Positions 21,445 through 54,954 of a DNA stretch of 64,000 bases are shown piece by piece; position 1 is the stretch's first letter, and the number at the start of each line of letters is the position of its first letter. The notes below the pieces were generated by a model. That model ran no database searches. It had not been told where the DNA came from and saw only the letters and a list, made by a program, of their open reading frames with translations. The position numbers and the translations under genes were made by a program. This stretch comes from Balanoglossus misakiensis (taxonomy: Eukaryota; Animalia; Hemichordata), in the NCBI GenBank assembly GCA_040954595.2, contig JBECUI020000027.1:310001-374000 (forward strand), written 5' to 3'.

Positions 21445-22625
21445 ATGATCAGCAATTTAAGGAAACTCACTCACTCACTCACTCACTCACTCACTCACTC
21501 ACTCACTCACTCACCAACTCTTGCGCGTTAGGACTTCAAAGAAAGCCTAGTTCCCTTCGCCGTTTTTCCCCGTTAAAAGCAATACTTTTCTGTATAATCC
21601 CAGCGCTGTTCCTGACAGGCTGCGGCCCCACCGGTCCAAGTCGAGAAACCCTCATAACAACTTTGACCATCAACGGCCTGGAGGGAGTGGCAACAGTTGA
21701 TGAAACCAAAACCGTTTTTTCTTTTGATAAACTAGACTCAGGTGCGGTAAGCACCTTTGACCTCAGCGTATCCCCTGGGGCCACGGTTACCCATGCCGAC
21801 GGTACCGCTCTGACGGCTGAGAATCTTCTTATTGGCGAGGAATTCCCCGTGCTCGTTACCGCAGAGGATGGACTTACTACCCAAACCTACACCTTATTAA
21901 TTACCGGGGATATTCTCATTACCAACAAATACAGCAACGGCTACTACGTCTGGTTTGACCTAACCTTGCATCAAAACACTACGGTGGATTTCTACGCAGT
22001 AGAAGAAGGAACGACCCTGCCCAGCGCCGATTCTGTGGCGGCCATGGATGACACCGATGGGGACCAGGCCGTTGACGGACAACACTTCAGAGATGCCTTG
22101 GTTGCCGGGGAACCCCACCGTATTGTTCTGTACAACTTGGACACCTCCAAAAACTACGATATTGGCAGCTATTTCAGTGATGCTAAGTATCCCGGCTCTC
22201 ACGCCGCTGTTTTGACACAGATGACTACAGCCGCAGAACCCAGCACTACCGGCAAGGTGGTTTGGCAGGCTTACGAAGGGCAGCGAATTATTCTGCCGCC
22301 TGCAAGGTTGTTGTCAAATAATGATCTTGCTGAAACATCCAAAGCTCATAGTCTTTACGTACGAAAAACTACAGCAGAGGGGGAGCAAGTCATCTACAAT
22401 TTATTTAATATAATTCCAGATAATTCTTATTCGTTCGGCCCTCAGTACAACCCAGCTATTTATCAGACTGTAGAGGTTCTTTTTACTCCTCCGGGATATT
22501 ATTTCATAAATTTTACAGATGTTATGAAATCACAAGAAGGCATATATTGGGTTCGATGGGGGGACGAAGATGCCGATACCGATTTCCCCGATGACTATAT
22601 TGATTTGCGCATCATAGAAAGGTAG
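21445..22625 (+). CDS. Variable lipoprotein copy 1, phase OFF ((CTCA)12)
   Basis: AGGAGG-ATG; ATG-to-LTING distance 218 nt, out of frame; downstream ORF intact. Confidence 0.88.
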
Positions 22626-23071
22626 TCTTTGTCTCGGCAGGGGATGTGCTGTTCTCATGCTAGGACGGCTGCCAAAGAATGCCATGGAGAAAGAAAAGAA
22701 AGGCTCCCGTTGGGGCCACAATGATGACTTTTCAGCAACCTCTAGGCCTGGGCAGTCCCTCGGGAACTAGAGGGAGTAAAAACGATAAGAAGAATCTGCT
22801 TACTGGTACCCCCAAAGCCCTAGAATAGGCTTTCGGGGTGTGCCCGCTCCCAGATGCCCGGAAAACCCTAGCCAGCACCCTAATCTCCCTATGATTCCTA
22901 TGCTTTTCCTCGGTTACTAACCAAGAAAAGATCATTTCACCCCCTTACCAAACAATAAAGAGATAACACCCCCCCTTGATAAAATCCAGATAGCGAGATA
23001 GACTGAAGCTTAAGTTCAAATCTAGTAAACCAAAGCCTTGTAAGAGGCTATTTTTAAGGAGGCATACAAAG

Positions 23072-24255
23072 ATGATCAGCAATTTAAGGAAACTCACTCA
23101 CTCACTCACTCACTCACTCACTCACTCACTCACTCACTCACTCACTCACTCACCAACTCTTGCGCGTTAGAACTTCAAAGAAAGCCTAATTCCCTTCGCC
23201 GTTTTTCCCCGTTAAAAGCAATACTTTTCTGTTTAATCCCAGCGCTATTCCTGGCAGGCTGCGGCAGCCCCACTCCGAGCAGTGAAGCCCTCATAACAAC
23301 TTTGACCATCAACGGCCTGGAGGGAGTGGCAACAATTGATGAAACCAAAGCCGTTTTTTCTTTTGATAAACTAGACTCAGGTGCGGTAAGCACCTTTGAC
23401 CTCAGCGTATCCCCCGGGGCCACGGTTACCCATGCCGACGGTACCGCTCTGACGGCTGAGAATCTTCTTATCGGCGAGGAATTCCCCGTGCTCGTTACAG
23501 CAGAGGATGGACTTACTACCCAAACCTACACCCTATTAATTACCGGGGATATTCTGATTACCAACAAATACAGCAACGGCTACTACGTCTGGTTTGACCT
23601 AACCTTGCATCAAAACGCTACGGTGGATTTCTACGCAGTAGAAGAAGGAACGACCCTGCCCAGCGCCGATTCCGTGGCGGCCATGGATGACACCGATGGC
23701 GACCAGGCCGTCGACGGTCGACACTTCAAAGATGACTTGGTTGCCGGGGAACCCCACCGTATTGTTCTCTACAACCTGGACACTTCCAAAAACTACGATA
23801 TTGGCAGCTATTTCAACGATGGTAAGTATCCCGGCTCTCACGCCGCTGTATTGACACAGATGACTACAGCCGCAGAACCCAGCACCACGGGCAAGGTGGT
23901 TTGGCAGGCTTACGAAGGGCAGCGAATCATTCTGCCGCCTGCAAGGTTGATGTCAAGGAATGATCTATCTGCTGGATCACCCGCCACTCAGTCTCTTTTC
24001 GTAAAAGAAACTACGGGAGAGAATAGAAGGGATATATATATAATCACTCCAGGTTCCTATCAATTGGGCAATGAGTACGAGGCTCCTATAGATCAGACTA
24101 TAAAGCTTATTTTTGCTCCTATGGGATATTATTTCGTAAACTTTGAGGATGTTATGAAATCACAAGAAGGCATATATTGGGTTCGAGTGTCGGCAATAAA
24201 TGACGATACCGATTCCCCCGATGACTATATTGATTTGCGCATCATAGAAAGGTAG
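23072..24255 (+). CDS. Variable lipoprotein copy 2, phase OFF ((CTCA)15)
   Basis: Distance 230 nt; LAGC lipobox; downstream ORF intact. Confidence 0.88.
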
Positions 24256-24699
24256 TCTTTGTCTCGGCAGGGGATGTGCCGTTCTCATGCTGGGACAGCT
24301 GCCAAGAATGCCATGGAGAAAGAAAAGAAAGGCTCCCCTTGGGGCCCAAATGATGACTTTTCAGTAACTTCCAGGCCTAAGCAGTCCCTCGGAGGCTAGA
24401 GGGAATAAAAACGATAAGAAGAATCTGCTTACTGGTACCCCCAAAGCCCTAGAATAGGCTTTCGGGGTGTGCCCGCTCCCCGATGCCCGGGACACCTTAG
24501 CCAGCACCCTAATTCCCTATGGCTACTACGCTTTTCTCAAGTTATTGACCAAAGAACAGACCATTTCTCCCCTTACCAAACAATAAAGAGATAACACCCC
24601 CCCTTGATAAAATCCAGATAGCGAGATAGACTGAAAGTTAAGTTCAAATCTAGTAAACTAAAGCCTTGTAAGAGGCTATTTTTAAGGAGGCATACAAAG

Positions 24700-25884
24700 A
24701 TGATCAGCAATTTAAGGAAACTCACTCACTCACTCACTCACTCACTCACTCACTCACTCACTCACTCACTCACTCACCAACTCTTGCGCGCTAGAACTCC
24801 AAAGAAAGCCTAGTTCCCTTCGCCGTTTTTCCCCGTTAAAAGCAATACTTTTCTGTTTAATCCCAGCGCTGTTTCTGACAGGATGCGGCAGCCCCACTCC
24901 GAGCAGTGAAGCCCTCATAACAACTTTGACCATCAACGGCCTGAGGGAGTGGCAACAGTTGATGAAACAAAAGCCGTTTTTTCTTTTGATAAACTAGACT
25001 CCAGCACGGTAAGCACCTTTGACCTCAGCGTATCCCCCGGGGCCACGGTTACCCATGCCGACGGTACCGCTCTGACAGCTGAAAATCTTCTTATCGGCGA
25101 GGAATTCCCCGTGCTCGTTACCGCAGAGGATGGGCTTACTACCCAAACCTACACCCTGTTAATTACCGGGGATATTCTCATTACCAACAAGTACAGCAAC
25201 GGCTACTATGTCTGGTTTGACCTAACCTTGCATCAAAATGCTACGGTGGATTTCTACGCAGTAGAAGAAGGAACGACCCCGCCCAGCGCCGATTCCGTGG
25301 CGGCCATGGATGACACCGATGGCGACCAGGCCGTTGACGGTCGGCACTTCAGAGATGACTTGGTTGCCGGGGAACCCCACCGTATTGTTCTGTACAACCT
25401 GGACACCTCCAAAAACTACGATATTGGCAGCTATTTCAACGATGGTAAGTATCCCGGCTCTCACGCCGCTGTTTTGACACAGATGACTACAGCCGCAGAA
25501 CCCAGCACTACAGGTAAGGTGGTTTGGCAGGCTTACGAAGGGCAGCGAATCATTCTGCCGCCTGCAAGGTTGTTGTCAAATAACGATATACCTGCTGGAA
25601 CAACCGAATCTCATTCTCTTCATGTGCAAAAAACTACGGCAGAGGGGGAGGTAGTCATTTCTCATATATTTTTAGTAACAAGTAGCTATCTTATCGGCGA
25701 TGATTATGACGACATTATTCATCAGACTATAGAGGTTATTTTTTCTCCTCTGGGATATTATTTCATAAATTTTAAGGATGTTATGAAATCACAAGAAGGC
25801 ATATATTGGGTTCGAAAGTCGGCAGCTGAGGACGATACCAATTCCCCCGATGACTATATTGATTTGCGCATCATAGAAAGGTAG
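24700..25884 (+). pseudogene. Variable lipoprotein copy 3, phase OFF ((CTCA)14) with an extra 1-bp deletion
   Basis: CTGAGGGAG at ~24941 instead of CTGGAGGGAG; could be a sequencing error. Confidence 0.75.
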
Positions 25885-26331: not shown

Positions 26332-27502
26332 ATGATCAGCAATTTAAGGAAACTCACTCACTCACTCACTCACTCACTCACTCACTCACTCACTCACTCA
26401 CTCACTCACCAGCTCTTGCGCGTTAGGACTTCAAAGAAAGCCTAATTCCCTTCGCCGTTTTTCCCCGTTAAAAGCAATACTTTTCTGTTTAATCCCAGCG
26501 CTGTTCCTGACAGGCTGCGGCAGCCCCACTCCGAGCAGTGAAGCCCTCATAACAACTTTGACCATCAACGGCCTGGAGGGAGTGGCAACAATTGATGAAA
26601 CCAAAGCCGTTTTTTCTTTTGATAAACTAGACTCAGGTGCGGTGACCGCCTTTGACCTCAGCGTATCACCCGGGGCCACGGTTACCCATGCCGACGGTAC
26701 CGCTCTGACAGCTGAAAATCTTCTTATCGGCGAGGAATTCCCCGTGCTCGTTACAGCAGAAGATGGGCTTACTACCCAAACCTACACCCTGTTAATTACC
26801 GGGGATATGCTCATTACCAACAAGTACAGCAACGGCTACTATGTCTGGTTTGACCTAACCTTGCATCAAAATGCTACGGTGGATTTCTACGCAGTAGAAG
26901 AAGGAACGACCCTGCCCAGCGCCGATTCCGTGGCGGCCATGACTGACACCGATGGCGACCAGGCCATCGACGGTCGACACTTCAGAGATGACTTGGTTGC
27001 CGGGGAACCCCACCGGATTGTTCTTTACAACTTGGACACCTCCAAAAACTACGATATTGGCGGCTATTTCAACGATGGTAAGTATCCCGGCTCTCACGCC
27101 GCTGTATTGACACAGATGACTACAGCCGCAGAACCCAGCACTACGGGCAAGGTGGTTTGGCAGGCTTACGAAGGGCAGCGAATCATTCTGCCGCCTGCAA
27201 GGTTGATGTCAAGGAATGATCTTGCTGGAACAAGCCTAGGTCATTCTTTTGCCGTACGAAGAACTACGGGAGAGAGTGGAAGGAATATATATCTAATCAC
27301 TTCAGGTTCCTATTTCTGGAGCACTTACTACGAGGCTCCTATACATCAGACTATAGAGGTTATTTTTGCTCCTCTAGGATATTATTTCGTAAACTTTGAG
27401 AATGTTATGAAATCACAAGAAGGCATATATTGGGTTCGATGGTTTGCGGAAGGTACCGATTCCCCCGATGACTATATTGATTTACGCATCATAGAAAGGT
27501 AG
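26332..27502 (+). CDS. Variable lipoprotein copy 4, phase OFF ((CTCA)14)
   Basis: Distance 226 nt; downstream ORF intact. Confidence 0.88.
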
Positions 27503-27951: not shown

Positions 27952-29119
27952 ATGATCAGCAATTTAAGGAAACTCACTCACTCACTCACTCACTCACTCA
28001 CTCACTCACTCACTCACTCACTCACTCACCAGCTCTTGCGCGTTAGGACTTCAAAGAAAGCCTAATTCCCTTCGCCGTTTTTCCCCGTTAAAAGCAATAC
28101 TTTTCTGTTTAATCCCAGCGCTGTTTCTGACAGGATGCGGCAGCCCCACTCCGAGCAGTGAAGCCCTCATAACAACTTTGACCATCAACGGCCTGGAGGG
28201 AGTGGCAACAGTTGATGAAACCAAAGCCGTTTTTTCTTTTGATAAACTAGACTCAGGTGCGGTAAGCACCTTTGACCTCAGCGTATCCCCCGGGGCCACG
28301 GTTACCCATGCCGACGGTACCGCTCTGACAGCTGAAAATCTTCTTATTGGCGAGGAATTCCCCGTGCTCGTTACCGCAGAGGATGGACTTACTACCCAAA
28401 CCTACACCCTATTAATTACCGGGGATATGCTCATTACCAACAAATACAGCAACGGCTACTATGTCTGGTTTGACCTAACCTTGCATCAAAATGCTACGGT
28501 GGATTTCTACGCAGTAGAAGAAGGAACAGCCCTGCCCAGCGCCGCTTCCGTTTCGGCCATGGATGACACCGATGGCGACCAGGCCATCGACGGTCGGCAC
28601 TTCAGAGATGCCTTGGTTGCCGGGGAACCCCACCGTATTGTTCTTTATAACTTGGACACCTCCAAAAACTACGATATTGGCAGCTATTTCAACGATGGTA
28701 AGTATCCCGGCTCTCACGCCGCTGTTTTGACACAGATGACTACAGCCGCAGAACCCAGCACTACAGGTAAGGTGGTTTGGCAGGCTTACGAAGGGCAGCG
28801 AATTATTCTGCCGCCTGCAAGGTTATTGTCAAATAATGATCTATCTGGAGCTGAAACGCACATGTTTTACGTACGGACAACTGTGGCAGTAGCGGATATA
28901 TTTGAAATGTTTTCAGGTACCTATCAGTTTGCCTCTTATTACGACCCAGCTGTTTATCATACCATAGAGATTATTATTGCTCCCCTGGGATATTATTTCA
29001 TAAATTTTAAGGATGTTATGAAATCACTAGAAGGTATATATTGGGTTCGATGGACGGCAGACGCTCAGGATACCAATTCCCCCGATGACTATATTGATTT
29101 GCGCATCATAGAAAGGTAG
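27952..29119 (+). CDS. Variable lipoprotein copy 5, phase OFF ((CTCA)14)
   Basis: Distance 226 nt; downstream ORF intact. Confidence 0.88.
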
Positions 29120-29278
29120 TCTTTGTCTCGGCAGGGGATGTGCCGTTCTCATGCTAGGACGGCTGCCAAGAATGCCATGAAGAAAGAAAAGAAAGGCTCC
29201 CCTTGGGGCCCAAATGATGACTTTTCAGTAACTTCCAGGCCTAAGCAGTCCCTCGGGGGCTAGAGGGAGTAAAAACGA

Positions 29279-29295
29279 TAAGAAGAATCTGCTTA
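29279..29295. promoter_or_regulatory. 17-bp imperfect palindrome TAAGAAGA-A-TCTGCTTA (example; one per array spacer)
   Basis: Arms TAAGAAGA and TCTGCTTA (one mismatch); ~175 bp upstream of the -35 box; function unknown. Confidence 0.5.
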
Positions 29296-29470: not shown

Positions 29471-29499
29471 TTGATAAAATCCAGATAAGGAGATAGACT
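29471..29499 (+). promoter_or_regulatory. Putative sigma70 promoter of copy 6 (equivalent present in every unit)
   Basis: TTGATA-17 bp-TAGACT (TAAACT in some units); AGGAGG at 29552-29557. Confidence 0.65.
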
Positions 29500-29566: not shown

Positions 29567-30751
29567 ATGATCAGCAATTTAAGGAAACTCACTCACTCAC
29601 TCACTCACTCACTCACTCACTCACTCACTCACTCACTCACCAACTCTTGCGCGTTAGGACTTCAAAGAAAGCCTAGTTCCCTTCGCCGTTTTTCCCCGTT
29701 AAAAGCAATACTTTTCTGTTTAATCCCAGCGCTGTTCCTGACAGGCTGCGGCAGCCCCACTCCGAGCAGTGAAGCCCTCATAACAACTTTGACCATCAAC
29801 GGCCTGGAGGGAGTGGCAACAATTGATGAAACCAAAGCCGTTTTTTCTTTTGATAAACTAGACTCAGGTGCGGTGACCGCCTTTGACCTCAGCGTATCAC
29901 CCGGGGCCACGGTTACCCATGCCGACGGTACCGCTCTGACGATGGCTAATCTTGTTATTGGCGAGGAATTCCCCGTGCTCGTTACCGCAGAGGATGGACT
30001 TACTACCCAACCCTACACCTTATTAATTACCGGGGATATGCTCATTACCAACAAATACAGCAACGGCTACTATGTCTGGTTTGACCTAACCTTGCATCAA
30101 AACGCTACGGTGGATTTCTACGCAGTAGAAGAAGGCACTACCCTACCCAGCGCCGATTCCGTGGCGGCCATGGATGACACCGATGGCGACCAGGCCGTCG
30201 ACGGTCGGCACTTCAGAGATGCCTTGGTTGCCGGGGAACCCCACCGTATTGTTCTCTATAACTTAGACACTTCCAAAAACTACGATATTGGCAGCTATTT
30301 CAGTGATGCTATGTATCCCGACTCTCACGCCGCTGTATTGACACAGATGACTACAGCCGCAGAACCCAGCACCACGGGCAAGGTGGTTTGGCAGGCTTAC
30401 GAAGGGCAGCGAATTCTTCTGCCGCCTGCAAGGTTGTTGTCAAGGAATGATCTTGCTGGAACATCCGAAACTCATGGTCTTTACGTACGAAAAACTACAG
30501 CAGAGGGAGAGGAAGTCATCTACAATTTATATCTTATGTTTTCAGACAGTACTTATACGATCGGCTCTGATTACAACCAAGCTATTCATCAGACTATAGA
30601 GGTTATTTTTGATCCTCTGGGATATTATTTCATAAATTTTACAGATGTTATGAAATCACAAGAAGGCATATATTGGGTTCGATGGGCGGAAGAAGATGCC
30701 GATACCGATTTCCCCGATGACTATATTGATTTGCGCATCATAGAAAGGTAG
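29567..30751 (+). CDS. Variable lipoprotein copy 6, phase ON ((CTCA)13): signal peptide, cadherin-like/Ig beta-sandwich domain, variable C-terminus
   Basis: 394-aa ORF reads through the tract as (LTHS)n to the lipobox LFLTG-C61; the VTAEDGxTTxxY motif is typical of cadherin-like beta-sandwich domains. Confidence 0.92.
   Translation: MISNLRKLTHSLTHSLTHSLTHSLTNSCALGLQRKPSSLRRFSPLKAILFCLIPALFLTGCGSPTPSSEALITTLTINGLEGVATIDETKAVFSFDKLDSGAVTAFDLSVSPGATVTHADGTALTMANLVIGEEFPVLVTAEDGLTTQPYTLLITGDMLITNKYSNGYYVWFDLTLHQNATVDFYAVEEGTTLPSADSVAAMDDTDGDQAVDGRHFRDALVAGEPHRIVLYNLDTSKNYDIGSYFSDAMYPDSHAAVLTQMTTAAEPSTTGKVVWQAYEGQRILLPPARLLSRNDLAGTSETHGLYVRKTTAEGEEVIYNLYLMFSDSTYTIGSDYNQAIHQTIEVIFDPLGYYFINFTDVMKSQEGIYWVRWAEEDADTDFPDDYIDLRIIER
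29588..29639 (+). repeat. (CTCA)13 simple-sequence repeat in the signal-peptide coding region (present in all 20 copies, n = 8-27)
   Basis: Directly visible; in frame only when n mod 3 = 1. Confidence 0.97.
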
Positions 30752-31198: not shown

Positions 31199-32366
31199 AT
31201 GATCAGCAATTTAAGGAAACTCACTCACTCACTCACTCACTCACTCACTCACCAGCTCTTGCGCGCTAGAACTCCAAAGAAAGCCTAGTTCCCTTCGCCG
31301 TTTTTCCCCGTTAAAAGCAATACTTTTCTGTCTAATCCCAGCGCTGTTCCTGACAGGCTGCGGCAGCCCCACTCCGAGCAGTGAAGCCCTCATAACAACT
31401 TTGACCATCAACGGCCTGGAGGGAGTGGCAACAATTGATGAAACCAAAGCCGTTTTTTATTTTGATAAACTAGACTCCGGTACGGTAAGCACCTTTGATC
31501 TCAGCGTATCCCCGGGGGCCACGGTTACCCATGCCGACGGTACCGATCTGACGGCTGAAAATCTTCTTATCGGCGAGGAATTCCCCGTGCTCGTTACCGC
31601 AGAGGATGGACTTACTACCCAAACCTACACCTTATTAATTACCGGGGATATACTCATTACCAACAAATACAGCAACGGCTACTACGTCTGGTTTGACCTA
31701 ACCTTGCATCAAAATGCCACGGTGGATTTCTACGCAGTAGAAGAAGGCACTACCCTACCCAGCGCCGCTTCCGTGGAGGCCATGGATGACACCGATGGCG
31801 ACCAGGCCGTCGACGGTCGGCACTTCAGAGATGCCTTGGTTGCCGGGGAACCCCACCGTATTGTTCCCTACAACTTGGACACCTCCAAAAACTACGATAT
31901 TGGCGGCTATTTCAGTGATGCTAAGTATCCCGGCTCTCACGCCGCTGTATTGACACAGATGACTACAGCCGCAGAACCCAGCACCACGGGCAAGGTGGTT
32001 TGGCAGGCTTACGAAGGGCAGCGAATCATTCTGCCGCCTGCAAGGTTGTTGTCAAATAACGATTTACCTGTTGGAACATCCAAATCTCATAGTCTTTACG
32101 TACGAAAAACTACAGCAGAGGGGGAGCAAGTCATCTACAGTTTATTTAAGATAATTTCAGATAATTATTATTCGTTCGGCCCTCATTACAACCCAGATAT
32201 TTATCAGACTGTAGAGGTTCTTTTTACTCCTCCGGGATATTATTTCATAAACTTTGAGGATGTTATGAAATTACAAGAAGGTATATATTGGGTTCGATGG
32301 ACGGAAGAAGCTGACGATACCGATCCCCCCGATGACTATATTGATTTGCGCATCATAGAAAGGTAG
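31199..32366 (+). CDS. Variable lipoprotein copy 7, phase OFF ((CTCA)8)
   Basis: Distance 202 nt; downstream ORF intact. Confidence 0.88.
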
Positions 32367-32817: not shown

Positions 32818-33998
32818 ATGATCAGCAATTTAAGGAAACTCACTCACTCACTCACTCACTCACTCACTCACTCACTCACTCACTCACCAACTCTTGCGCG
32901 TTAGAACTCCAAAGAAAGCCTAGTTCCCTTCGCCGTTTTTCCCCGTTAAAAGCAATACTTTTCTGTCTAATCCCAGCGCTGTTCCTGACAGGCTGCGGCA
33001 GCCCCACTCCGAGCAGTGAAGCCCTCATAACAACTTTGACCATCAACGGCCTGGAGGGAGCGGCAACAATTGATGAAACCAAAGCCGTTTTTTCTTTTGA
33101 TAAACTAGACTCAGGTGCGGTAAGCACCTTTGACCTCAGCGTATCCCCCGGGGCCACGGTTACCCATGCCGACGGTACCGCTCTGACAGCTGAAAACCTT
33201 CTTATCGGCGAGGAATTCCCCGTGCTCGTTACCGCAGAGGATGGGCTTACTACCCAAACCTACACCCTGTTAATTACCGGGGATATTTTCATTACCAACA
33301 AATACAGCAACGGCTACTATGTCTGGTTTGACCTAACCTTGCATCAAAATGCTACGGTGGATTTCTACGCAGTAGAAGAAGGAACGACCCTGCCCAGCGC
33401 CGATTCCGTGGCGGCCATGGATGACACCGATGGCGACCAGGCCGTTGACGGACAACACTTCAGAGATGACTTGGTTGCCGGGGAACCCCACCGGATTGTT
33501 CTCTACAACTTGGACACCTCCAAAAACTACGATATTGGCAGCTATTTCAGTGATGCTCAGTATCCCGACTCTCACGCCGCTGTTTTGACACAGATGACTA
33601 CAGCCGCAGAACCCCGCACCACGGGCAAGGTGGTTTGGCAGGCTTACGAAGGGCAGCGAATTATTTTGCCGCCTGCAAGGTTGTTGTCAAATAACGATTT
33701 ACCTGTTGGAACATCCAAATCTCATACTCTTCTTTTGCAAAAAACTACGGCAGAGGGGGAGGTAGTCAACTATGCCTTATTTACTCTAAATCCAGGTGCC
33801 TATCAGTTTTCCTCTGATTACGACCCAGCTGTTTATCATACCATAGAGATTATTATTGCTCCCCTGGGATATTATTTCATAAATTTTAAGGATGTTATGA
33901 AATCACAAGAAGGCATATATTGGGTTCGATGGACGCTTACAGATCAGGATACCAATTCCCCCGATGACTATATTGATTTGCGCATCATAGAAAGGTAG
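32818..33998 (+). CDS. Variable lipoprotein copy 8, phase OFF ((CTCA)12)
   Basis: Distance 218 nt; downstream ORF intact. Confidence 0.88.
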
Positions 33999-40517: not shown

Positions 40518-40965
40518 TCTTTGTCTCGGCAGGGGATGTGCCGTTCTCATGCTGGGACGGCTGCCAGGAATGCCATGGAGAAAGAAAAGAAAGGCTCCCG
40601 TTGGGGCCAAAATGATGACTTTTCAGCAACCTCTAGGCCTGGGCAGTCCCTCGGAGACTAGAGGGAATAAAAACGATAAGAAGAATCTGCTTACTGGTAC
40701 CCCCAAAGCCCTAGAATAGGCTTTCGGGGTGTGCCCGCTCCCAGATGCCCGGGAAACCCTAGCCAGAACCCTAATTCCCTATGGCTACTACGCTTTTTCT
40801 CAAGTTATTGACCAAAGAACAGACCATTTCACCCCCTTACCAAACAATAAAGAGATAACACCCCCCCCCTTGATAAAATCCAGATAGCGAGATAGACTGA
40901 AAGTTAAGTTCAAATCTAGTAAACCAAAGCCTTGTAAGAGGCTATTTTTAAGGAGGCATACAAAG

Positions 40966-42124
40966 ATGATCAGCAATTTAAGGAAACTCACTCACTCACT
41001 CACTCACTCACTCACTCACTCACTCACTCACTCACTCACTCACCAACTCTTGCGCGCTAGAACTCCAAAGAAAGCCTAATTCCCTTCGCCGTTTTCCCCC
41101 GTTAAAAGCAATACTTTTCTGTTTAATCCCAGCGCTGTTCCTGACAGGCTGCGGCCCCACCGGTCCAAGTCGAGAAACCCTCATAACAACTTTGACCATC
41201 AACGGCCTGGAGGGAGTGGCAACAGTTGATGAAACCAAAGCCGTTTTTTCTTTTGATAAACTAGACTCAGGTGCGGTAAGCACCTTTGACCTCAGCGTAT
41301 CACCCGGGGCCACGGTTACCCATGCCGACGGTACCGCTCTGACGGCTGAAAATCTTGTTATTGGCGAGGAATTCCCCGTGATCGTTACTGCAGAGGATGG
41401 ACTTACTACCCAAACCTACACCCTGTTAATTACCGGGGATATGCTCATTACCAACAAATACAGCAACGGCTACTACGTCTGGTTTGACCTAACCTTGCAT
41501 CAAAATGCTACGGTGGATTTCTACGCAGTAGAAGAAGGAACGACCCTGCCCAGCGCTGCTTCCGTAGCGGCCATGGATGACACCGATGGCGACCAGGCCG
41601 TCGACGGTCGGCACTTCAAAGATGACTTGGTTGCCGGGGAACCCCACCGTATTGTTCTCTACAACTTGGACACCTCCAAAAACTACGATATTGGCAGCTA
41701 TTTCAACGATGGTAAGTATCCCGACTCTCACGCCGCTGTATTGACACAAATGACTACAGCCGCAGAACCCAGCACTACGGGCAAGGTGATTTGGCAGGCT
41801 TACGAAGGGCAGCGAATCATTCTGCCGCCTGCAAGGTTGTTGTCAAATAACGATCTATCTTCACCTGTATCGCACACACTTACTGTGGCAGGGAAATACA
41901 AGTCTGTATTAGAAATTATTCCAAATACCTATCAAGTTGGTACTAGTCACGACGCAACTGTTCATCAGACTATAGAGGTTATTATTGCTCCTATGGGATA
42001 TTATTTCCTTAATTTTACAGATGCTATGAAATCACAAGAAGGCATACATTGGGTTCGAATAACGACGGTAAGTGCCGATATCATCCCCGATGACTATATT
42101 GATTTGCGCATCATAGAAAGGTAG
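40966..42124 (+). CDS. Variable lipoprotein copy 13, phase OFF ((CTCA)14)
   Basis: Distance 226 nt; shortest and among the most divergent C-termini. Confidence 0.88.
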
Positions 42125-42573: not shown

Positions 42574-43757
42574 ATGATCAGCAATTTAAGGAAACTCACT
42601 CACTCACTCACTCACTCACTCACTCACTCACTCACTCACTCACCAACTCTTGCGCGCTAGGACTTCAAAGAAAGCCTAATTCCCTTCGCCGTTTTTCCCC
42701 GTTAAAAGCAATGCTTTTCTGTTTAATCCCAGCGCTATTCCTGGCAGGCTGCGGCAGCCCCACTCCGAGCAGTGAAGCCCTCATAACAACTTTGACCATC
42801 AACGGCCTGGAGGGAGTGGCAACAATTGATGAAACCAAAGCCGTTTTTTCTTTTGATAAACTAGACTCAGGTGCGGTGACCGCCTTTGACCTCAGCGTAT
42901 CCCCCGGGGCCACGGTTACCCATGCCGACGGTACCGCTCTGACGGCTGAGAATCTTGTTATCGGCGAGGAATTCCCCGTGCTCGTTACAGCAGAGGATGG
43001 ACTTACTACCCAAACCTACACCTTATTGATTACCGGGGATATTCTCATTACCAATAAATACAGCAACGGCTACTACGTCTGGTTTGACCTAACCTTGCAT
43101 CAAAACGCTACGGTGGATTTCTACGCAGTAGAAGAAGGAACGACCCTGCCCAGCGCCGATTCCGTGGCGGCTATGGATGACACCGATGGGGACCAGGCCG
43201 TTGACGGTCAACACTTCAGAGATGCCTTGGTTGCCGGGGAACCCCACCGTATTGTTCTCTACAACTTGGACACCTCCAAAAACTACGATATTGGCAGCTA
43301 TTTCAGTGATGCTAAGTATCCCGACTCTCACGCCGCTGTATTGACACAGATGACTACAGCCGCAGAACCCAGCACCACGGGCAAGGTGGTTTGGCAGGCT
43401 TACGAAGGGCAGCGAATTATTCTGCCGCCTGCAAGGTTGTTGTCAAATAACGATATACCTGCTGGAACAACCAAAACTCAGTCTCTTTTCGCACGAAAAA
43501 CTACAGCAGAGGGAGAGGAAGTCATCTACCATTTATATTTTCTGTTTTCAGGTAATATTTATTCGTTCGGCTCTAATTACAACCCAGCTATTTATCATAC
43601 CGTAGAGATTATTATTGCTCCTCTGGGATATTATTTCATAAATTTTACAGATGTTATGAAATCACAAGGAGGTATATATTGGGTTCGATGGACGGAAGAA
43701 GCTGACGATACCGATTCCCCCGATGACTATATTGATTTGCGCATCATAGAAAGGTAG
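42574..43757 (+). CDS. Variable lipoprotein copy 14, tract OFF ((CTCA)12) but with an internal in-frame ATG at 42711
   Basis: Distance 218 nt; an ATA>ATG change yields MLFCLIPALFLAG-C. Confidence 0.85.
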
Positions 43758-43831: not shown

Positions 43832-45182
43832 GGTAGTGTCAAGAATTTTGCGCACTTTCAAATCTCCAATGTTGAAAGAGCCTAACTTACATCTTGCCTT
43901 ATCGCTTCAAGTAAGTCCATATTCAAATACTTTTCTGTACTCCATTTTGTTCCCATGATGTACCTGAGCCTGGCAGCTGATAGCATAAGGGCCGAATCCC
44001 CATCGGGGAAATGTTCTGCAACTTTGGTTCTGCGTTTGATTTCTTTCATGATTCTTTCAAGAGGATTATTAGTCCTGATCCGAATCCAATGTTCCTGAGG
44101 GAAATACATATGCTCAAGAGTTTCGTGGATATAGTTTTTCACCATGTTAGCAGCCTTGGGAAGTTTCATATTGCGGAGTTTCGTTTCAATCAGTTGAGCC
44201 TTCTCAAGAGCAGCATCACGATCTTCTTGCGCATGAATTGCCTTCAACATTGCTGCAACTTCACGGACCTTCTCACGGGGAACTACTGAGAATACATTCC
44301 GGTAATAGTGAACAACGCATCGTTGCCATCGTGCTTTAGGGAAAAACTCTTCGATGGATTCGATCAATCCGATGCATTTGTCGCTTATGAAGAGCTGAGT
44401 ATCCTTAAGCCCTCGATTTTTCAAGTGTGCAAGGAAGTTGCTCCATCCAGCTTTATCTTCCTTTTCACCTTCAACAACACCTAAAACACTACGATATCCG
44501 CTTTCTGAGACGCCTATCGCTACCAGAATGCTCACATTTCGCACTTCTCCAGCCCATGAGCGCTTAAGGATTGTCCCATCCAGATACACATAAGGAAAGT
44601 TCTCCTTGATGGGTTGATTCCGCCAAGTATTGATTCTCACGTAGAGATCCTGGTTCAAATTGCTCATTGTCCCAGGGCTGACCTTGGTTCCCCAAAGGGC
44701 CTCGGTAATATCTTTAACTCGGCGCACTGAAACACCAGCTAAATACATTTCAACTAAGGCTTCTTCAACGGATGTTTCCCGGCGTTTATAACGCTCAATA
44801 ATTGCTGTTTCGAATGGAAGCTTTCTTAGCTTTGGAATTTTCAAGTTAACTCTTCCAGCAGCGATATCCAACTTCCTAGTGTAATGTCCAGCACGAGTAT
44901 CTTTTCGTGCATCCGTACGCTCGTATTTTTCAGCCTGAAGTAAAAAATCTACCTCTGCATTGAGCATGGCATTCAAGGTTCCCTCTACGGTTGTTTTAAC
45001 CATTTGGCTTAACTTGCTCTGTACAAGACCTTCATCGATCTGTATGATCTTTCCCGTGGGGTCTTTTTCTGACCTCATTTTGTCCTCCGTGTGAATGGTT
45101 TTACATTCGATTCCATTTCAACATTGGAGGACATTTTTTTTCAATGCCTTTTTAGAATGTGCGCAAAATTCTTGACACTACC
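43832..45182 (-). mobile_element. IS256-family insertion sequence, 1351 bp
   Basis: Perfect 24-bp terminal inverted repeats GGTAGTGTCAAGAATTTTGCGCAC; 8-bp target duplication GAAAAGAA (43824-43831 and 45183-45190). Confidence 0.97.
43882..45078 (-). CDS. IS256-family (mutator-type) DDE transposase
   Basis: 398 aa; EMYLAGVSVR, YVYLDG, FISD, WQRCVVH and IRTNNPLER motifs. Confidence 0.96.
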   Translation of the reverse strand: MRSEKDPTGKIIQIDEGLVQSKLSQMVKTTVEGTLNAMLNAEVDFLLQAEKYERTDARKDTRAGHYTRKLDIAAGRVNLKIPKLRKLPFETAIIERYKRRETSVEEALVEMYLAGVSVRRVKDITEALWGTKVSPGTMSNLNQDLYVRINTWRNQPIKENFPYVYLDGTILKRSWAGEVRNVSILVAIGVSESGYRSVLGVVEGEKEDKAGWSNFLAHLKNRGLKDTQLFISDKCIGLIESIEEFFPKARWQRCVVHYYRNVFSVVPREKVREVAAMLKAIHAQEDRDAALEKAQLIETKLRNMKLPKAANMVKNYIHETLEHMYFPQEHWIRIRTNNPLERIMKEIKRRTKVAEHFPDGDSALMLSAARLRYIMGTKWSTEKYLNMDLLEAIRQDVS

Positions 45183-45562: not shown

Positions 45563-46727
45563 ATGATCAGCAATTTAAGGAAACTCACTCACTCACTCAC
45601 TCACTCACTCACTCACTCACTCACTCACCAGCTCTTGCGCGCTAGAACTCCAAAGAAAGCCTAATTCCCTTCGCCGTTTTTCCCCGTTAAAAGCAATACT
45701 TTTCTGTTTAATCCTAGCGCTGTTCCTGACAGGCTGCGGCCCCACCGGTCCAAGTCGAGAAACCCTCATAACAACTTTGACCATCAACGGCCTGGAGGGA
45801 GTGGCAACAATTGATGAAACCAAAGCCGTTTTTTCTTTTGATAAACTAGACTCCAGCACGGTAAGCACCTTTGACCTCAGCGTATCCCCCGGGGCCACGG
45901 TGACCCATGCCGACGGTACCGCTCTGACAGCTGAAAATCTTCTTATCGGCGAGGAATTCCCCGTGCTCGTTACTGCAGAGGATGGACTTACTACCCAAAC
46001 CTACACCCTGTTAATTACCGGGGATATGCTCATTACCAACAAATACAGCAACGGCTACTACGTCTGGTTTGACCTAACCTTGCATCAAAACGCTACGGTG
46101 GATTTCTACGCAGTAGAAGAAGGCACTACCCTACCCAGTGCCGATTCCGTGGCGGCCATGGATGACACCGATGGCGACCAGGCCGTCGACGGTCGGCACT
46201 TCAGAGATGCCTTGATTGCCGGGGAACCCCACCGTATTGTTCTGTACAACCTGGACACCTCCAAAAACTACGATATTGGCGGCTATTTCAACGATGGTAA
46301 GTATCCCGGCTCTCACGCCGCTGTTTTGACACAGATGACTACAGCCGCAGAACCCAGCACTACAGGTAAGGTGGTTTGGCAGGCTTACGAAGGGCAGCGA
46401 ATTATTTTGCCGCCTGCAAGGTTATTGTCAAGGAATGATCTTGCTGGAACAAACAGAACTCATTCTCTTTTCGTAAAAGAAACTACGGGAGAGAGTAGAA
46501 GGATTGTATATGTAATCACTCCAGGTTCCTATCAATTGGGCAATCACTACGATGCTTCTATACATCAGACTATAAAGCTTATTTTTGCTCCTATGGGATA
46601 TTATTTCGTAAACTTTGAGGATGTTATGAAATCACAAGAAGGCATATATTGGGTTCGATGGACGCTTACAGATCAGGATACCAATTCCCCCGATGACTAT
46701 ATTGATTTGCGCATCATAGAAAGGTAG
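45563..46727 (+). CDS. Variable lipoprotein copy 15, phase OFF ((CTCA)11)
   Basis: Distance 214 nt; downstream ORF intact. Confidence 0.88.
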
Positions 46728-47178: not shown

Positions 47179-48380
47179 ATGATCAGAAATTTAAGGAAAC
47201 TCACTCACTCACTCACTCACTCACTCACTCACTCACTCACTCACTCACTCACTCACTCACCCACTCACTCACCAACTCTTGCGCGCTAGAACTCCAAAGA
47301 AAGCCTAATTCCCTTCGCCGTTTTTCCCCGTTAAAAGCAATACTTTTCTGTTTAATCCCAGCGCTGTTCCTGACAGGCTGCGGCAGCCCCACTCCGAGCA
47401 GTGAAGCCCTCATAACAACTTTGACCATCAACGGCCTGGAGGGAGTGGCAACAATTGATGAAACCAAAGCCGTTTTTTCTTTTGATAAACTAGACTCCAG
47501 TGCGGTAAGCACCTTTGACCTCAGCGTATCCCCCGGGGCCACGGTTACCCATGCCAACGGTACCGCTCTGACGGCTGAAAATCTTCTTATCGGCGAGGAG
47601 TTCCCCGTGCTCGTTACAGCAGAGGATGGACTTACTACCCAAACCTACACCCTGTTAATTACCGGGGATATTCTGATTACCAACAAATACAGCAACGGCT
47701 ACTATGTCTGGTTTGACCTAACCTTGCATCAAAATGCTACGGTGGATTTCTACGCAGTAGAAGAAGGCACTACCCTACCCAGCGCCGCTTCCGTTGCGGA
47801 CATGGATGACACCGATGGCGACCAGGCCGTCGACGGTCGGCACTTCAGAGATGACTTGGTTGCCGGGGAACCCCACCGTATTGTTCTGTACAACCTGGAC
47901 ACCTCCAAAAACTACGATATTGGCGGCTATTTCAGTGATGCTAAGTACCCTGGCTCTCACGCCACTGTATTGACACAGATGACTACAGCCGCAGAACCCA
48001 GCACTACGGGCAAGGTGGTTTGGCAGGCTTACGAAGGGCAGCGAATCATTCTGCCGCCTTCAAGGTTGTCGTCAAATAACGATCTATCTGGAAATGAAAC
48101 GCATAAACTTTCCGTACGGAGAACTGTGGCAGGGGTGGAGGAATACCTTATAACTGTATATGAAATCATTCCAGGAGGTCACTATCAATTTGGCTATGAT
48201 TACGATGCAGCTACTCATCAGACTATAGAGGTTATTATTGATCCTCTGGGATATTATTTCATAAATTTTACAGATGTTATGAAATCACAAGAAGGCCTAT
48301 ATTGGATTCGAGTGCCGGCAGAAGGGGACGATACCATTACCCCCGATGAATATATTGATTTGCGCATCATAGAAAGGTAG
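47179..48380 (+). CDS. Variable lipoprotein copy 16, phase OFF (18 units, one interrupted as CCCA)
   Basis: Distance 242 nt; downstream ORF intact. Confidence 0.88.
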
Positions 48381-48833: not shown

Positions 48834-50031
48834 ATGATCAGCAATTTAAGGAAACTCACTCACTCACTCACTCACTCACTCACTCACTCACTCACTCACT
48901 CACTCACTCACTCACTCACTCACCAACTCTTGCGCGCTAGAACTTCAAAGAAAGCCTAATTCCCTTCGCCGTTTTTCCCCGTTAAAAGCAATACTTTTCT
49001 GTTTAATCCCAGCGCTATTCCTGGCAGGCTGCGGCAGCCCCACTCCGAGCAGTGAAGCCCTCATAACAACTTTGACCATCAACGGCCTGGAGGGAGTGGC
49101 AACAATTGAGGGAACCAAAGCCGTTTTTTCTTTTGATAAACTAGACTCAGGTGCGGTGACCGCCTTTGACCTCAGCGTATCCCCCGGGGCCACGGTTACC
49201 CATGCCGACGGTACCGCTCTGACGGCTGAAAATCTTGTTATCGGCGAGGAATTCCCCGTGCTCGTTACCGCAGAGGATGGACTTACTACCCAAACCTACA
49301 CCCTGTTAATTACCGGGGATATTCTCATTACCAACAAATACAGCAACGGCTACTACGTCTGGTTTGACCTAACCTTGCATCAAAATGCTACGGTGGATTT
49401 CTACGCAGTAGAAGAAGGAACGACCCTGCCCAGCGCCACTTCCGTTTCGGCCATGGATGACACCGATGGCGACCAGGCCGTTGACGGTCGGCACTTCAGA
49501 GATGCCTTGATTGCTGGGGAACCCCACCGTATTGTTCTGTACAACCTGGACACCTCCAAAAACTACGATATTGGCAGCTATTTCAACGATGGTAAGTATC
49601 CCGGCTCTCACGCCGCTGTTTTGACACAGATGACTACAGCCGCAGAACCCAGCACTACAGGTAAGGTGGTTTGGCAGGCTTACGAAGGGCAGCGAATCAT
49701 TCTGCCGCCTGCAAGGTTGTTGTCAAATAACGATATACCTGCTGGAACAACCGAATCTCATTCTCTTCATGTGCAAAAAACTACGGCAGAGGGGGAGGTA
49801 GTCATTTCTCATATATTTTTAGTAACAAGTAGCTATCTTATCGGCGATGATTATGACGACATTATTCATCAGACTATAGAGGTTATTTTTTCTCCTCTGG
49901 GATATTATTTCATAAATTTTAAGGATGTTATGAAATCACAAGAAGGCATATATTGGGTTCGAAAGTCGGCAGCTGAGGACGATACCAATTCCCCCGATGA
50001 CTATATTGATTTGCGCATCATAGAAAGGTAG
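48834..50031 (+). CDS. Variable lipoprotein copy 17, phase OFF ((CTCA)17)
   Basis: Distance 238 nt; C-terminal half identical to copy 3. Confidence 0.88.
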
Positions 50032-50479: not shown

Positions 50480-51654
50480 ATGATCAGCAATTTAAGGAAA
50501 CTCACTCACTCACTCACTCACTCACTCACTCACTCACTCACTCACTCACCAACTCTTGCGCGCTAGAACTCCAAAGAAAGCCTAGTTCCCTTCGCCGTTT
50601 TTCCCCGTTAAAAGCAATACTTTTTTGTTTACTCCTAGCACTTTTCCTGACAAGCTGCGGCCCCACCGGTCCAAGTCGAGAAACCCTCATAACAACTTTG
50701 ACCATCAACGGCCTGGAGGGAGTGGCAACAGTTGATGAAACCAAAGCCGTTTTTTCTTTTGATAAACTAGACTCAGGTGCGGTAAGCACCTTTGACCTCA
50801 GCGTATCCCCCGGGGCCACGGTTACCCATGCCGACGGTACCGCTCTGACAGCTGAAAATCTTCTTATCGGCGAGGAATTCCCCGTGCTCGTTACCGCAGA
50901 GGATGGGCTTACTACCCAAACCTACACCCTGTTAATTACCGGGGATATTCTCATTACCAACAAGTACAGCAACGGCTACTATGTCTGGTTTGACCTAACC
51001 TTGCATCAAAATGCTACGGTGGATTTCTACGCAGTAGAAGAAGGAACGACCCTGCCCAGCGCCGATTCCGTGGCGGCCATGGATGACACCGATGGCGACC
51101 AGGCCGTTGACGGTCGGCACTTCAGAGATGACTTGGTTGCCGGGGAACCCCACCGTATTGTTCTCTACAACTTGGACACCTCCAAAAACTACGATATTGG
51201 CGGCTATTTCAACGATGGTAAGTATCCCGGCTCTCACGCCGCTGTATTGACACAGATGACTACAGCCGCAGAACCCAGCACTACGGGTAAGGTGGTTTGG
51301 CCGGCTTACGAAGGGCAGCGAATCATTCTGCCGCCTGCAAGGTTGATGTCAAGGAATGATCTTGCTGGAACATCCGAAACTCATGGTCTTTACGTACGAA
51401 AAACTACAGCAGAGGGAGAGGAAGTCATCTACAATTTATATCTTATGTTTTCAGACAGTACTTATACGATCGGCTCTGATTACAACCAAGCTATTCATCA
51501 GACTATAGAGGTTATTTTTGATCCTCTGGGATATTATTTCATAAATTTTACAGATGTTATGAAATCACAAGAAGGCATATATTGGGTTCGATGGGCGGAA
51601 GAAGATACCGATTTCCCCGATGACTATATTGATTTGCGCATCATAGAAAGGTAG
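50480..51654 (+). CDS. Variable lipoprotein copy 18, phase OFF ((CTCA)12)
   Basis: Distance 218 nt; duplicate of copy 12. Confidence 0.88.
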
Positions 51655-52102: not shown

Positions 52103-53285
52103 ATGATCAGCAATTTAAGGAAACTCACTCACTCACTCACTCACTCACTCACTCACTCACTCACTCACTCACTCACTCACCAACTCTTGCGCGCTAGAAC
52201 TCCAAAGAAAGCCTAATTCCCTTCGCCGTTTTCCCCCGTTAAAAGCAATACTTTTCTGTTTAATCCCAGCGCTGTTCCTGACAGGCTGCGGCCCCACCGG
52301 TCCAAGTCGAGAAACCCTCATAACAACTTTGACCATCAACGGCCTGGAGGGAGTGGCAACAGTTGATGAAACCAAAGCCGTTTTTTCTTTTGATAAACTA
52401 GACTCAGGTGCGGTAAGCACCTTTGACCTCAGCGTATCACCCGGGGCCACGGTTACCCATGCCGACGGTACCGCTCTGACGGCTGAAAATCTTGTTATTG
52501 GCGAGGAATTCCCCGTGATCGTTACTGCAGAGGATGGACTTACTACCCAAACCTACACCCTGTTAATTACCGGGGATATGCTCATTACCAACAAATACAG
52601 CAACGGCTACTATGTCTGGTTTGACCTAACCTTGCATCAAAATGCTACGGTGGATTTCTACGCAGTAGAAGAAGGAACGACCCTGCCCAGCGCCGATTCC
52701 GTGGCGGCCATGGATGACACCGATGGGGACCAGGCCGTTGACGGACAACACTTCAGAGATGCCTTGGTTGCCGGGGAACCCCACCGTATTGTTCTCTATA
52801 ACTTAGACACTTCCAAAAACTACGATATTGGCAGCTATTTCAACGATGGTAAGTATCCCGGCTCTCACGCCGCTGTATTGACACAGATGACTACAGCCGC
52901 AGAACCCAGCACCACGGGCAAGGTGGTTTGGCAGGCTTATGAAGGGCAGCGAATTATTTTGCCGCCTGCAAGGTTATTGTCAAATAACGATCTATCTGGA
53001 GCTGAAACGCATAAACTTTCCGTACGGAGAACTGTGGCAGGGGTGGAGGAATACCTTGTATATGTATATGAACTCATTCCAGGTGCCTATCAATTGGGCG
53101 CTGATTACGACGCAGCTACTCATCAGACTATAGAGGTTATTTTTGATCCTCTGGGATATTATTTCATAAATTTTACAGATGTTATGAAATCACAAGAAGG
53201 CCTATATTGGATTCGAATGCCGGCAGAAGGAAAAAATCTCATTACCCCCGATGAATATATTGATTTGCGCATCATAGAAAGGTAG
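52103..53285 (+). CDS. Variable lipoprotein copy 19, phase OFF ((CTCA)14)
   Basis: Distance 226 nt; 5' part matches copy 13, 3' part resembles copy 16. Confidence 0.88.
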
Positions 53286-53725
53286 TCTTTGTCTCGGCAG
53301 GGGATGTGCCGTTCTCATGCTGGGACGGCTGCCAAGAATGCCATGGAGAAAGAAAAGAAAGACTCCCCTGGGGGCCCCCATGATGACTTTGCAGTAACTT
53401 CCAGCCCCAATCAGTCCCTCGGGGGCTAAGAGCTAGTAAACAAAACGATAAGAAGAATCTGCTTACTGATACCCCCAAAGCCCTAGGATAGGCTTTCGGG
53501 GTGTGCCCTCTCCCAGAGTTCCGGGAAACCTTAGCAAGCACCCTAATCTCCCTATGCTTTTCCTCGGTTACTGACCAAGAACAGACCATTTCTCCCCTTA
53601 CCAAACAATAAAGAGATAACACCCCCCCCTTGATAAAATCCAGATAAGGAGATAGACTGAAAGTTAAGTTCAAATCTAGTAAACTAAAGCCTTGTAAGAG
53701 GCTATTTTTAAGGAGGTATACAAAG

Positions 53726-54954
53726 ATGATCAGCAATTTAAGGAAACTCACTCACTCACTCACTCACTCACTCACTCACTCACTCACTCACTCACTCACT
53801 CACTCACTCACTCACTCACTCACTCACTCACTCACTCACTCACTCACTCACTCACCAACTCTTGCGCGTTAGGACTTCAAAGAAAGCCTAGTTCCCTTCG
53901 CCGTTTTTCCCCGTTAAAAGTAATACTTTTCTGTTTAATCCCAGCGCTGTTCCTGACAGGCTGCGGCCCCACCGGTCCAAGTCGAGAAACCCTCATAACA
54001 ACTTTGACCATCAACGGCCTGGAGGGAGTGGCAACAATTGATGAAACCAAAGCCGTTTTTTCTTTTGATAAACTAGACTCCAGCACGGTAAGCACCTTTG
54101 ACCTCAGCGTATCCCCCGGGGCCACGGTTACCCATGCCGACGGTACCGCTCTGACAGCTGAAAATCTTCTTATCGGCGAGGAATTCCCCGTGCTCGTTAC
54201 TGCAGAGGATGGACTTACTACCCAAACCTACACCCTATTAATTACCGGGGATATGCTCATTACCAACAAATACAGCAACGGCTACTATGTCTGGTTTGAC
54301 CTAACCTTGCATCAAAACGCTACGGTGGATTTCTACGCAGTAGAAGAAGGAACGACCCTGCCCAGCGCCGCTTCCGTGACGGCCATGGATGACACCGATG
54401 GCGACCAAGCCGTCGACGGTCAACACTTCAGAGATGCTTTGGTTGCCGGGGAACCCCACCGGATTGTTCTCTACAACCTGGACACCTCCAAAAACTACGA
54501 TATTGGCAGCTATTTCAACGATGGTAAGTATCCCGGCTCTCACGCCGCTGTATTGACACAGATGACTACAGCCGCAGAACCCAGCACCACGGGCAAGGTG
54601 GTTTGGCAGGCTTACGAAGGGCAGCGAATTATTCTGCCGCCTGCAAGGTTATTGTCAAATAACGATCTATCTGGAACTGATTCGCATAAACTTTCCGTAC
54701 GGAGAACTGTGGCAGGGGTGGAGGAAACCTTTGAATCTGTATATGAATTTCTTCCAGGTGCCTATCAGGTCGCCCCTCAGTACGACTCAGCTATTCATCA
54801 GACTATAGAGGTTATTTTTTCTCCTCTGGGATATTATTTCATAAATTTTACAGATGTTATGAAATCACAAGAAGGTATATATTGGGTTCGAATGACAACG
54901 GGAGGTACCGATTCCCCCGATGACTATATTGATTTGCGCATCATAGAAAGGTAG
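53726..54954 (+). CDS. Variable lipoprotein copy 20, phase OFF ((CTCA)27)
   Basis: Distance 278 nt; longest tract (53747-53854). Confidence 0.88.

Follow-up and report, generated by a model that had tools for sequence, protein, structure and literature searches.

A 64,000-nucleotide stretch of DNA deposited under Balanoglossus misakiensis (contig JBECUI020000027.1, positions 310,001 to 374,000 of the forward strand; hereafter, the window) contains an array of 20 tandem lipoprotein genes at window positions 21445-54954 on the + strand, each unit of ∼1.63 kb consisting of a promoter spacer and a gene. A single copy is in frame, sequence segments have been exchanged among the copies along their whole length, and protein diversity is concentrated in a C-terminal tip that is predicted to adopt a V-set-like immunoglobulin (Ig) fold and is likely under diversifying selection. 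Taken together, we consider it probable that the array is a contingency locus in the style of the Neisseria opa genes. The arginine deiminase encoded in the window has its nearest matches in uncultured Spirochaetaceae (74, 68, and 68% identity), so the organism that carries the array is likely a spirochaete, by sequence an uncultured Spirochaetaceae-like bacterium.

A coding repeat leaves one gene of the array in frame

Every unit contains, in order, a C-rich tract of variable length, a σ70-like site, an AGGAGG-type ribosome-binding site (RBS), an ATG, an (ACTC)n tract, a signal peptide, and a lipobox cysteine. The promoter-like site (TTGATA-17-TA[GA]ACT), RBS, and ATG are present in 20/20 copies, and in copy 6 (c6, 29567..30751, +) the site lies at 29471..29499 (+) and reads TTGATA-17-TAGACT. 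All 20 copies have the (ACTC)n tract between the ATG and the signal peptide; its length varies from 8.5 to 27.5 units, and these coding tracts are the only tandem repeats within the array. The sole in-frame copy is c6 (394 amino acids; coding tract 29587..29640, +; lipobox Cys codon 29747), and the three phases are represented in the ratio 1:10:9 (P = 0.0033 under a 1/3 chance per copy). Another in-frame start between the tract and the cysteine was absent from 19 of the 20 copies, the exception being c14, and the frame downstream of the tract is intact in 19 of the 20 genes. A reading of this DNA made from its letters alone (the sequence-only reading) had placed diversity in the tip on top of ON/OFF switching; the switching layer was borne out as a repeat layer, with the tract in 20/20 copies and 1/20 in frame.

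The C-rich tract abuts the −35 box of each copy (e.g. 29450-29499), and two variants of the −10 box occur, TAGACT and TAAACT. A second, transcriptional layer of tuning is possible.

A search against Rfam returned only a chance match on the tract. None of five related genomes contained an (ACTC)6 tract (0/5). A metagenome scan for RBS-ATG-(ACTC)7 gave at least 119 loci, and the 80 that were examined proved unrelated to the array; a few of them resemble lone bacterial genes that begin with this leader repeat. Unrelated metagenome genes that have (ACTC)7-12 just after the start, and that are likely phase-variable, appeared by eye to be methyltransferase-like (L089, L093, L103, and L141), lipoprotein-like (L115 and L156), or secreted-protein-like (L102).

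Protein diversity is concentrated in the C-terminal tip

Over the 190 pairs of copies, mean identity was 94.1% (amino acid) and 95.1% (nucleotide) in the N part, compared with 63.7 and 79.6%, respectively, in the C part, which follows the PPARL motif. The claim that variation is concentrated after PPARL therefore holds (94% amino acid identity before vs 64% after). The 20 copies and all five of the shared blocks that had been reported in the tip were found as described: YDPAVYHTIEIIIAP is common to c5 and c8; WTLTDQDTNSP to c8 and c15; VSAINDDT to c2 and c9; HKLSVRRTVAGVEE to c16, c19, and c20; and LPVGTSKSH to c7 and c8. When the pairwise blocks were taken individually in a GENECONV-like test, c5/c8 and c8/c15 were significant, but c7/c8 and c2/c9 were not (global p ∼0.20).

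The anchors that were said to separate these blocks are partly as strict as proposed. PD[DE]YIDLRIIER is present in 20/20 copies, but the others are looser than described, with PPARL in 19/20, [HQ]TI in 17/20, and the full P[LM]GYYF..YWVR pattern in 11/20. The segment that follows the lipobox cysteine is dimorphic, with 8 copies of GPTGPSRETL and 12 of GSPTPSSEAL, and this dimorphism is not linked to the type of C terminus (permutation p = 0.49, 19 copies), both as the sequence-only reading had it; in its example, the alignment of c6 with c12 has 7 differing positions in the C-terminal part vs 58 in the N-terminal part.

Segments are exchanged along the whole gene

Recombination was tested on 19 copies, with c18 left out because it is an exact duplicate of c12. 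The pairwise homoplasy index (PHI) gave p = 1e-4 in both the N part (85 informative sites) and the C part (102 sites); for the C part with a wider window, p = 0.012. Site incompatibility climbs with distance, from 0.37 for sites 1-5 nt apart to 0.73 for those separated by more than 500 nt. A GENECONV-like test was significant for 19/171 pairs, with 14 tracts that were N-terminal, 4 that were C-terminal, and 1 across both, and on the tip alone for 6/171 pairs, which include c5/c8 and c8/c15. When six segments were compared, each rejected the trees of the other segments. Because such approximately unbiased tests alone are biased toward each segment's own tree, simulation was taken as the deciding test, and 100 data sets were simulated without recombination at the observed site rates. 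For three segments of the tip, the likelihood gap was 104, compared with a maximum of 11.3 in the single-tree simulations, and the PHI z was −5.2 vs values of at least −2.4. One tree is thus rejected for the C-terminal region by both measures, and the first condition that had been named as refuting the earlier inference, a single tree for all segments, does not hold.

The suggestion that segmental gene conversion builds the tip stands insofar as segments are reassorted among copies, but the process is not special to the C terminus, as PHI is equally strong in the N part; in addition, non-reciprocal conversion is not demonstrable from one assembly, and a periodicity in the array (below) suggests unequal crossing-over as well. 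From these results, we conclude that recombination runs along the whole gene and that the tip is special in its amino acid diversity, not in its mosaicism.

The copies c3 and c17 are exactly identical over 665 nt. Distance within the array did not track similarity (Mantel rho 0.07, p ∼0.4). Tips six units apart resembled each other more than expected (global p = 0.042; for this lag, p = 0.018 when c18 was left out), a post hoc and weak result which hints at a block duplication older than the conversion laid over it, with unequal crossing-over alongside.

Amino acid change is tolerated or favored in the tip, where a third of the minor alleles are private

By counting, the ratio of nonsynonymous to synonymous divergence (dN/dS, or ω) was 0.23 (0.15-0.34) in the mature N part, 1.26 (confidence interval, 0.93-1.74) in the tip, and 2.56 (1.4-6.1) in the FG-loop block. 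Maximum likelihood (ML) estimates of ω were 0.247 for the stalk vs 1.562 for the tip, and on segment-specific trees of the tip they were 1.39, 1.86, and 1.85 (p = 0.096, 0.013, and 0.031, respectively; summed p = 0.0034). The dN/dS comparison that the sequence-only reading had called for therefore gives a raised value in the tip (1.3-1.6 vs 0.25 in the stalk).

Of the 264 minor alleles in the tips of 18 copies, 180 are shared and 84 (∼1/3) are private to one copy, and tip indels keep the reading frame. The many private alleles indicate that point mutation and in-frame indels supply the raw material for shuffling. The idea that conversion itself generates the variants is thus half right, since shuffling spreads segments but new mutations and indels supply them (84/264 private).

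Public sequencing run X1 matched the unique right flank over 5343 nt without a difference, so it contains the strain that carries the array; X1 may be the source sample and is not independent. It includes tip sequence that is absent from the 20 copies: wherever in the array it is placed, one contig at near-single-copy depth shows 6 or more differences in 33 positions, and two loose ends are matched exactly nowhere in the array. Either additional copies elsewhere or variation in the population would explain these alleles.

The tip is predicted to be a cysteine-free V-set-like domain

The full-length model was poor (predicted local distance difference test score (pLDDT) 56) and weakly shows three β domains, the first of which is cadherin-like/DUF5018-like. 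In c6, this domain and a second β domain (weak fn3-like match) make up the conserved stalk (29747..30361, +), and the terminal domain (30362..30748, +), in which variation begins after PPARL (30422), has a predicted V-set-like Ig fold. Modeled alone, the tip is predicted to have eight strands and a short one (pLDDT 65; predicted template-modeling score 0.63). A Foldseek search with this model placed T-cell receptor and antibody V domains first (best E = 1.4e-5, TM ∼0.5). When 48,161 chains were searched without bias, the top 50 were animal Ig-superfamily chains by title, with V-type domains leading (CD8, LAG3, CAR, and CD48; Z 6.0-7.1 over the whole domain), and a second structural search reached Z 7.4. 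Across these searches, the model matches V domains along its full length (Z 6-7.4; root-mean-square deviation 3-4 Å). Viral structural matches were led by RL11/CR1-type Ig proteins. There was no Siglec chain or Siglec-like binding region (SLBR) chain among the top 50 structural rows, which does not exclude such chains.

None of the 20 copies has a cysteine after the lipobox, so cysteines for a B-F disulfide are lacking, and there is no tryptophan in strand C. The V domains of the CD2/CEACAM type are likewise not known to have this disulfide. On the strength of the models, we newly propose that the tip is a predicted cysteine-free V-set-like Ig domain. Ig-like folds may arise convergently (PMC13262535), and bacterial V-set-like folds are known; therefore, we do not claim that the domain was acquired from an animal.

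With strands named by the V-set convention (PMC12051499), mean entropy was lowest in strands G (0.0), B (0.08), A′ (0.12), and E and F (0.24), and it reached 1.3-2.0 in BC, C, CC′, C′, C′C″, C″, C″D, and FG, where indels are also found. The F strand reads G[IL][YH]W[VI]R; Arg-107 and the F and G strands are invariant, CC′ and FG are variable, and the EF loop is conserved. Entropy was 0.66 at hydrophobic strand positions vs 1.24 at other strand positions and 1.14 in loops, and core positions exchange among hydrophobic residues; in the model, the low variation at hydrophobic strand positions would fit an exposed variable side. On the proposed check of whether the variable blocks form one surface, a medium-confidence model places variation on the loops and the C/C′/C″ edge of the terminal β-sandwich. 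As the tip is tethered by its N terminus, general V topology suggests that the loops equivalent to complementarity-determining regions (CDRs) would lie nearer the stalk and CC′/C″D would be distal.

Relatives of the array proteins

A word-index protein search found no relative of the full-length protein, alignment of the tip against longer proteins gave none, and scans of genome and metagenome contigs found no relative of the tip or the whole protein. A profile searched against 1.84 billion representatives gave 45 matches whose best stretches all fell in profile positions 8-211, with none in the tip, and the ESM Atlas returned nothing at ≥0.9. The only sequence match in the PDB, CEACAM5 (E = 1.2), was rejected, as the alignment runs into the C-terminal tail of the construct. 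In a related Spirochaetaceae genome (G003), two lipoproteins (L081:1423-2724 and L082:1423-2748) share with the array proteins a similar lipobox and a similar stalk at the N terminus (hhalign probability 83% over residues 1-137) and differ from each other most at their C termini. Unlike the array, they are two dispersed copies in a genome without an (ACTC)6 tract, and their C-terminal domain has no match. The literature searches, which covered open papers, turned up no description of such an array in spirochaetes.

Individual copies and flanking sequences

All copies are on the + strand and, apart from c6, out of frame. The first, c1 (21445..22625; PPARL at 22296), is of the GPTGPS type, and c2 (23072..24255; PPARL at 23935) is of the GSPTPS type. 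An extra 1-nt deletion follows the lipobox in c3 (24700..25884; PPARL at 25558), whose C half equals that of c17 (48834..50031). Next are c4 (26332..27502; PPARL at 27191), c5 (27952..29119; PPARL at 28811), which has a tract in common with c8, and, beyond c6, c7 (31199..32366; PPARL at 32034). In the tip of c8 (32818..33998), segments like those of c7, c5, and c15 form a mosaic. After c9 (34450..35623), c10 (36070..37261), and c11 (37709..38880) comes c12 (39319..40517), which is identical after the tract to c18 (50480..51654); these are the same gene, with tracts of 12 units in c18 vs 18 in c12. The tip of c13 (40966..42124) is the most divergent. In c14 (42574..43757), which is out of frame from the main ATG, the extra in-frame ATG lies 13 codons before the cysteine. 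The tract of c16 (47179..48380), which follows c15 (45563..46727), is interrupted, and its motif reads PPSRL. A c13-type start is fused to a c16/c20-type tip in c19 (52103..53285), and c20 (53726..54954) has the longest tract, 27 units. An exact repeat of 2065 nt (39411..41475 = 50548-52612, +) covers c12, the spacer, and the start of c13 in one place and c18, the spacer, and the start of c19 in the other, ending inside c13 and c19.

Upstream of c1 lies a relic, copy 0 (20516..21004, +), a degenerate remnant with a spacer fragment and a decayed C-terminal end but no ACTC tract. An IS256-family element (43832..45182, −; transposase 43882-45078) occupies the c14/c15 spacer. The array is flanked on one side by a BspA-type leucine-rich repeat (LRR) gene and on the other by a moeA fragment, then an fn3/Big_2 protein, and then a second BspA-type gene. 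The BspA-type LRR_5 proteins are encoded at 14091-20042 and 61217-63931, and the first has an internal repeat of 441 nt (2.8 copies, 98%). The moeA-like open reading frame (ORF; 55466-56440) is apparently truncated (its MoeA_N match starts only at position 72).

Elsewhere in the window, 17 tandem copies of a 41-nt repeat, and behind them a 21-nt repeat, occupy 64-847, where the overlying ORFs are probably spurious. Two CRISPR-like mini-arrays (8748-9218 and 9747-9858) have 7 and 2 copies of a 38-nt repeat with spacers of 33-36 nt; each is preceded by a duplicated leader of ∼530 nt, and a degenerate CRISPR-like repeat lies near 8193. The 148-amino acid ORFs at 8336 and 9335 sit in these leaders and are probably not genes. 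No cas gene was seen among the window proteins scanned. The spacers share only 12-nt matches with the array, with no sign of targeting, and a 17-nt exact match of the spacer at 9076-9108 to 62962-62978, in the second BspA-type gene, is probably due to chance.

Discussion

The array combines an opa-like mechanism with a vlhA-like layout in a likely spirochaete. The Neisseria opa genes are described as complete genes in multiple copies whose frame depends on a repeat within the sequence for the signal peptide; recombination shuffles their variable regions, some copies form identical pairs, and in-frame copies are fewer than chance predicts (10.64898/2026.02.02.703239; PMC4534519). The array is similar in its multiple complete genes, its frame-setting repeat, its shuffling, its identical pair, and its deficit of in-frame copies, and it has three hallmarks of an opa-like frameshift family based on simple sequence repeats, namely a 5′ tract with units that are not a multiple of 3 nt, most copies off yet intact, and shuffling of variable regions. 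By those accounts, the opa genes differ in occupying 9-12 separate loci, in their CTCTT pentamer, and in encoding outer-membrane proteins, whereas the array has 20 tandem genes, uses an ACTC tetramer, and encodes lipoproteins with a predicted Ig V-like tip. The array proteins have a lipobox, give no Opacity match in Pfam or NCBIfam, and show no sequence relation to Opa. The proteins encoded by opa are β-barrels.

The vlhA (pMGA) genes of Mycoplasma gallisepticum, described as tandem, full-length, mosaic lipoprotein genes with their own promoters and repeat control (PMC4534519; PMC5138195), have the same layout as the array, in which each gene also has a promoter. As described, however, their GAA tract lies upstream of the promoter and acts on transcription, whereas the main tract of the array is coding and would act by frameshift; protein and phylum are also unrelated, and no VlhA family match was found in the array proteins. 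Borrelia vlsE and Treponema tprK, which belong to the same phylum, share with the array variable blocks between invariant anchors and segmental mosaics (PMC4534519). They use one expression site with silent partial donors, whereas the array copies are full genes, each with a promoter-like site and a putative switch, and no copy is a dedicated expression site. An expression-site system of the vlsE/tprK type was rejected, as all 20 copies have the promoter-like site, RBS, and ATG.

Under the contingency-locus reading, slipped-strand changes in ACTC number would switch each gene ON or OFF, so that one variant tip would be displayed at a time. RecA-type conversion, and now and then unequal crossing-over, would move segments between copies, starting from the stalk, which is 95% identical, the anchors, and the spacers. 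Selection on the displayed copy would retain new loop variants, recombination would spread and recombine them, and the 19 silent copies would store them. Amino acid change is purged in the stalk (ω 0.25) and tolerated or favored in the tip (ω 1.3-1.6), where the predicted cysteine-free Ig V-like sandwich on a two-domain stalk would bind a variable host-side partner or evade a host or phage recognizer. We tentatively extend this reading to a bacterial antibody-like repertoire, that is, a V-set library whose CDR-equivalent loops and C′C″ edge are diversified by conversion and positive selection, with approximately one member expressed through slippage.

Several points count against this reading. 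The data come from one assembly, in which switching and the direction of transfer would not be visible. The counting ω of the tip has an interval that includes 1 (1.26, 0.93-1.74), the ML values of ω are inflated by recombination, and synonymous divergence is also higher in the tip (0.114 in the N part, 0.178 in the tip), a rise that relaxed homogenization alone would give. Because recombination inflates ω and synonymous divergence rises, diversifying selection on the tip is likely, not proven. The tip model is of medium confidence and comes from a shallow alignment of 18 rows; its Z values are middling, and a Z below 8 may mean only a common arrangement. A Pfam Ig/V-set family was found in 0/18 tips at E up to 10 (a filter-limited search), and the strand names are our own mapping onto the DSSP string.

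A rival account is relaxed constraint combined with concerted evolution, in which the tip would drift near neutrality in mostly silent copies, recombination would be a by-product of tandem homology, and diversity would not be selected for. We consider this account unlikely. A tip dN/dS by counting that is not significantly above 1, an ω for segment C1 of 1.39 (p = 0.096), recombination that is equally strong in the conserved stalk, the frameshift in c3, and the decay of copy 0 all agree with it, but the frame is intact after the tract in 19/20 copies, tip indels are frame-keeping, framework strands are near-invariant with core swaps that remain hydrophobic, and two of the three segments have ω >1 on their own trees. 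We think it improbable that chimeric joining of repeat units during assembly made the mosaics and the c12/c18 duplicate: the shared tracts are short (30-100 nt), numerous, and interleaved with private differences, c12 and c18 differ in tract length, the tests were made without c18, and many tips are unique, even though c12 equals c18 over 2065 nt, the best public run has only 0.37 of the words of 21400-31300 and contains tip alleles missing from the 20 copies. Least credible, at a very small probability, is a diversity-generating retroelement that would mutagenize adenines from a template repeat. C-terminal hypervariability in an Ig-like fold and a relic partial copy upstream recall such a system; against it, columns with an A majority do not vary the most (A 0.53, C 0.66, G 0.67, and T 0.38), indels are many, and no reverse transcriptase was found among 18 window proteins scanned against Pfam.

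A different function for the same machinery, in place of immune escape, would be a repertoire of adhesins or lectins that tune their ligand, in which the invariant F-strand arginine (GIYWVR) would hold a common sugar or protein group and the variable loops would set specificity, as in streptococcal Siglec-like adhesins. In the streptococcal SLBRs (SrpA, Hsa, and GspB), hypervariable loops surround a conserved F strand in a V-set Ig fold (PMC9117288; 10.1101/2020.06.09.141622), and an F-strand motif with variable CD, EF, and FG loops is described for them (PMC9117288). The predicted V-set-like fold of the tip, with variable loops beside a conserved F strand, is similar, as is the contrast of an invariant Arg-107 and invariant F and G strands with variable CC′ and FG. 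Unlike the array proteins, SLBRs have the PhiTRX motif and form part of serine-rich repeat proteins that do not belong to a switchable array. They are not known to be encoded by more than a single gene per strain. The array lacks PhiTRX (its F strand reads YWVR), its EF loop is conserved, and expression of nearly one copy at a time would suit evasion more than broad adhesion. Ligand tuning is possible but doubtful as the function, and it is a sub-case of the contingency-locus reading, not exclusive of it.

Antigen systems that both switch and shuffle are known mostly from vertebrate pathogens, whereas this one sits in a likely spirochaete and involves a tip domain for which no sequence relative was detected. 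Provided that the V-like fold is confirmed, the array would represent convergence on the design of antibodies, with a fixed framework, variable loops, conversion, and near-single expression. Should the antibody-like reading be true, this would be the first description in Spirochaetaceae of a multigene surface-antigen array switched by repeats, and it would indicate that the host has a variable receptor or immune system. The 18 distinct natural variants of the tip are available to ask what selects this variation, be it a host receptor, host immunity, or phage.

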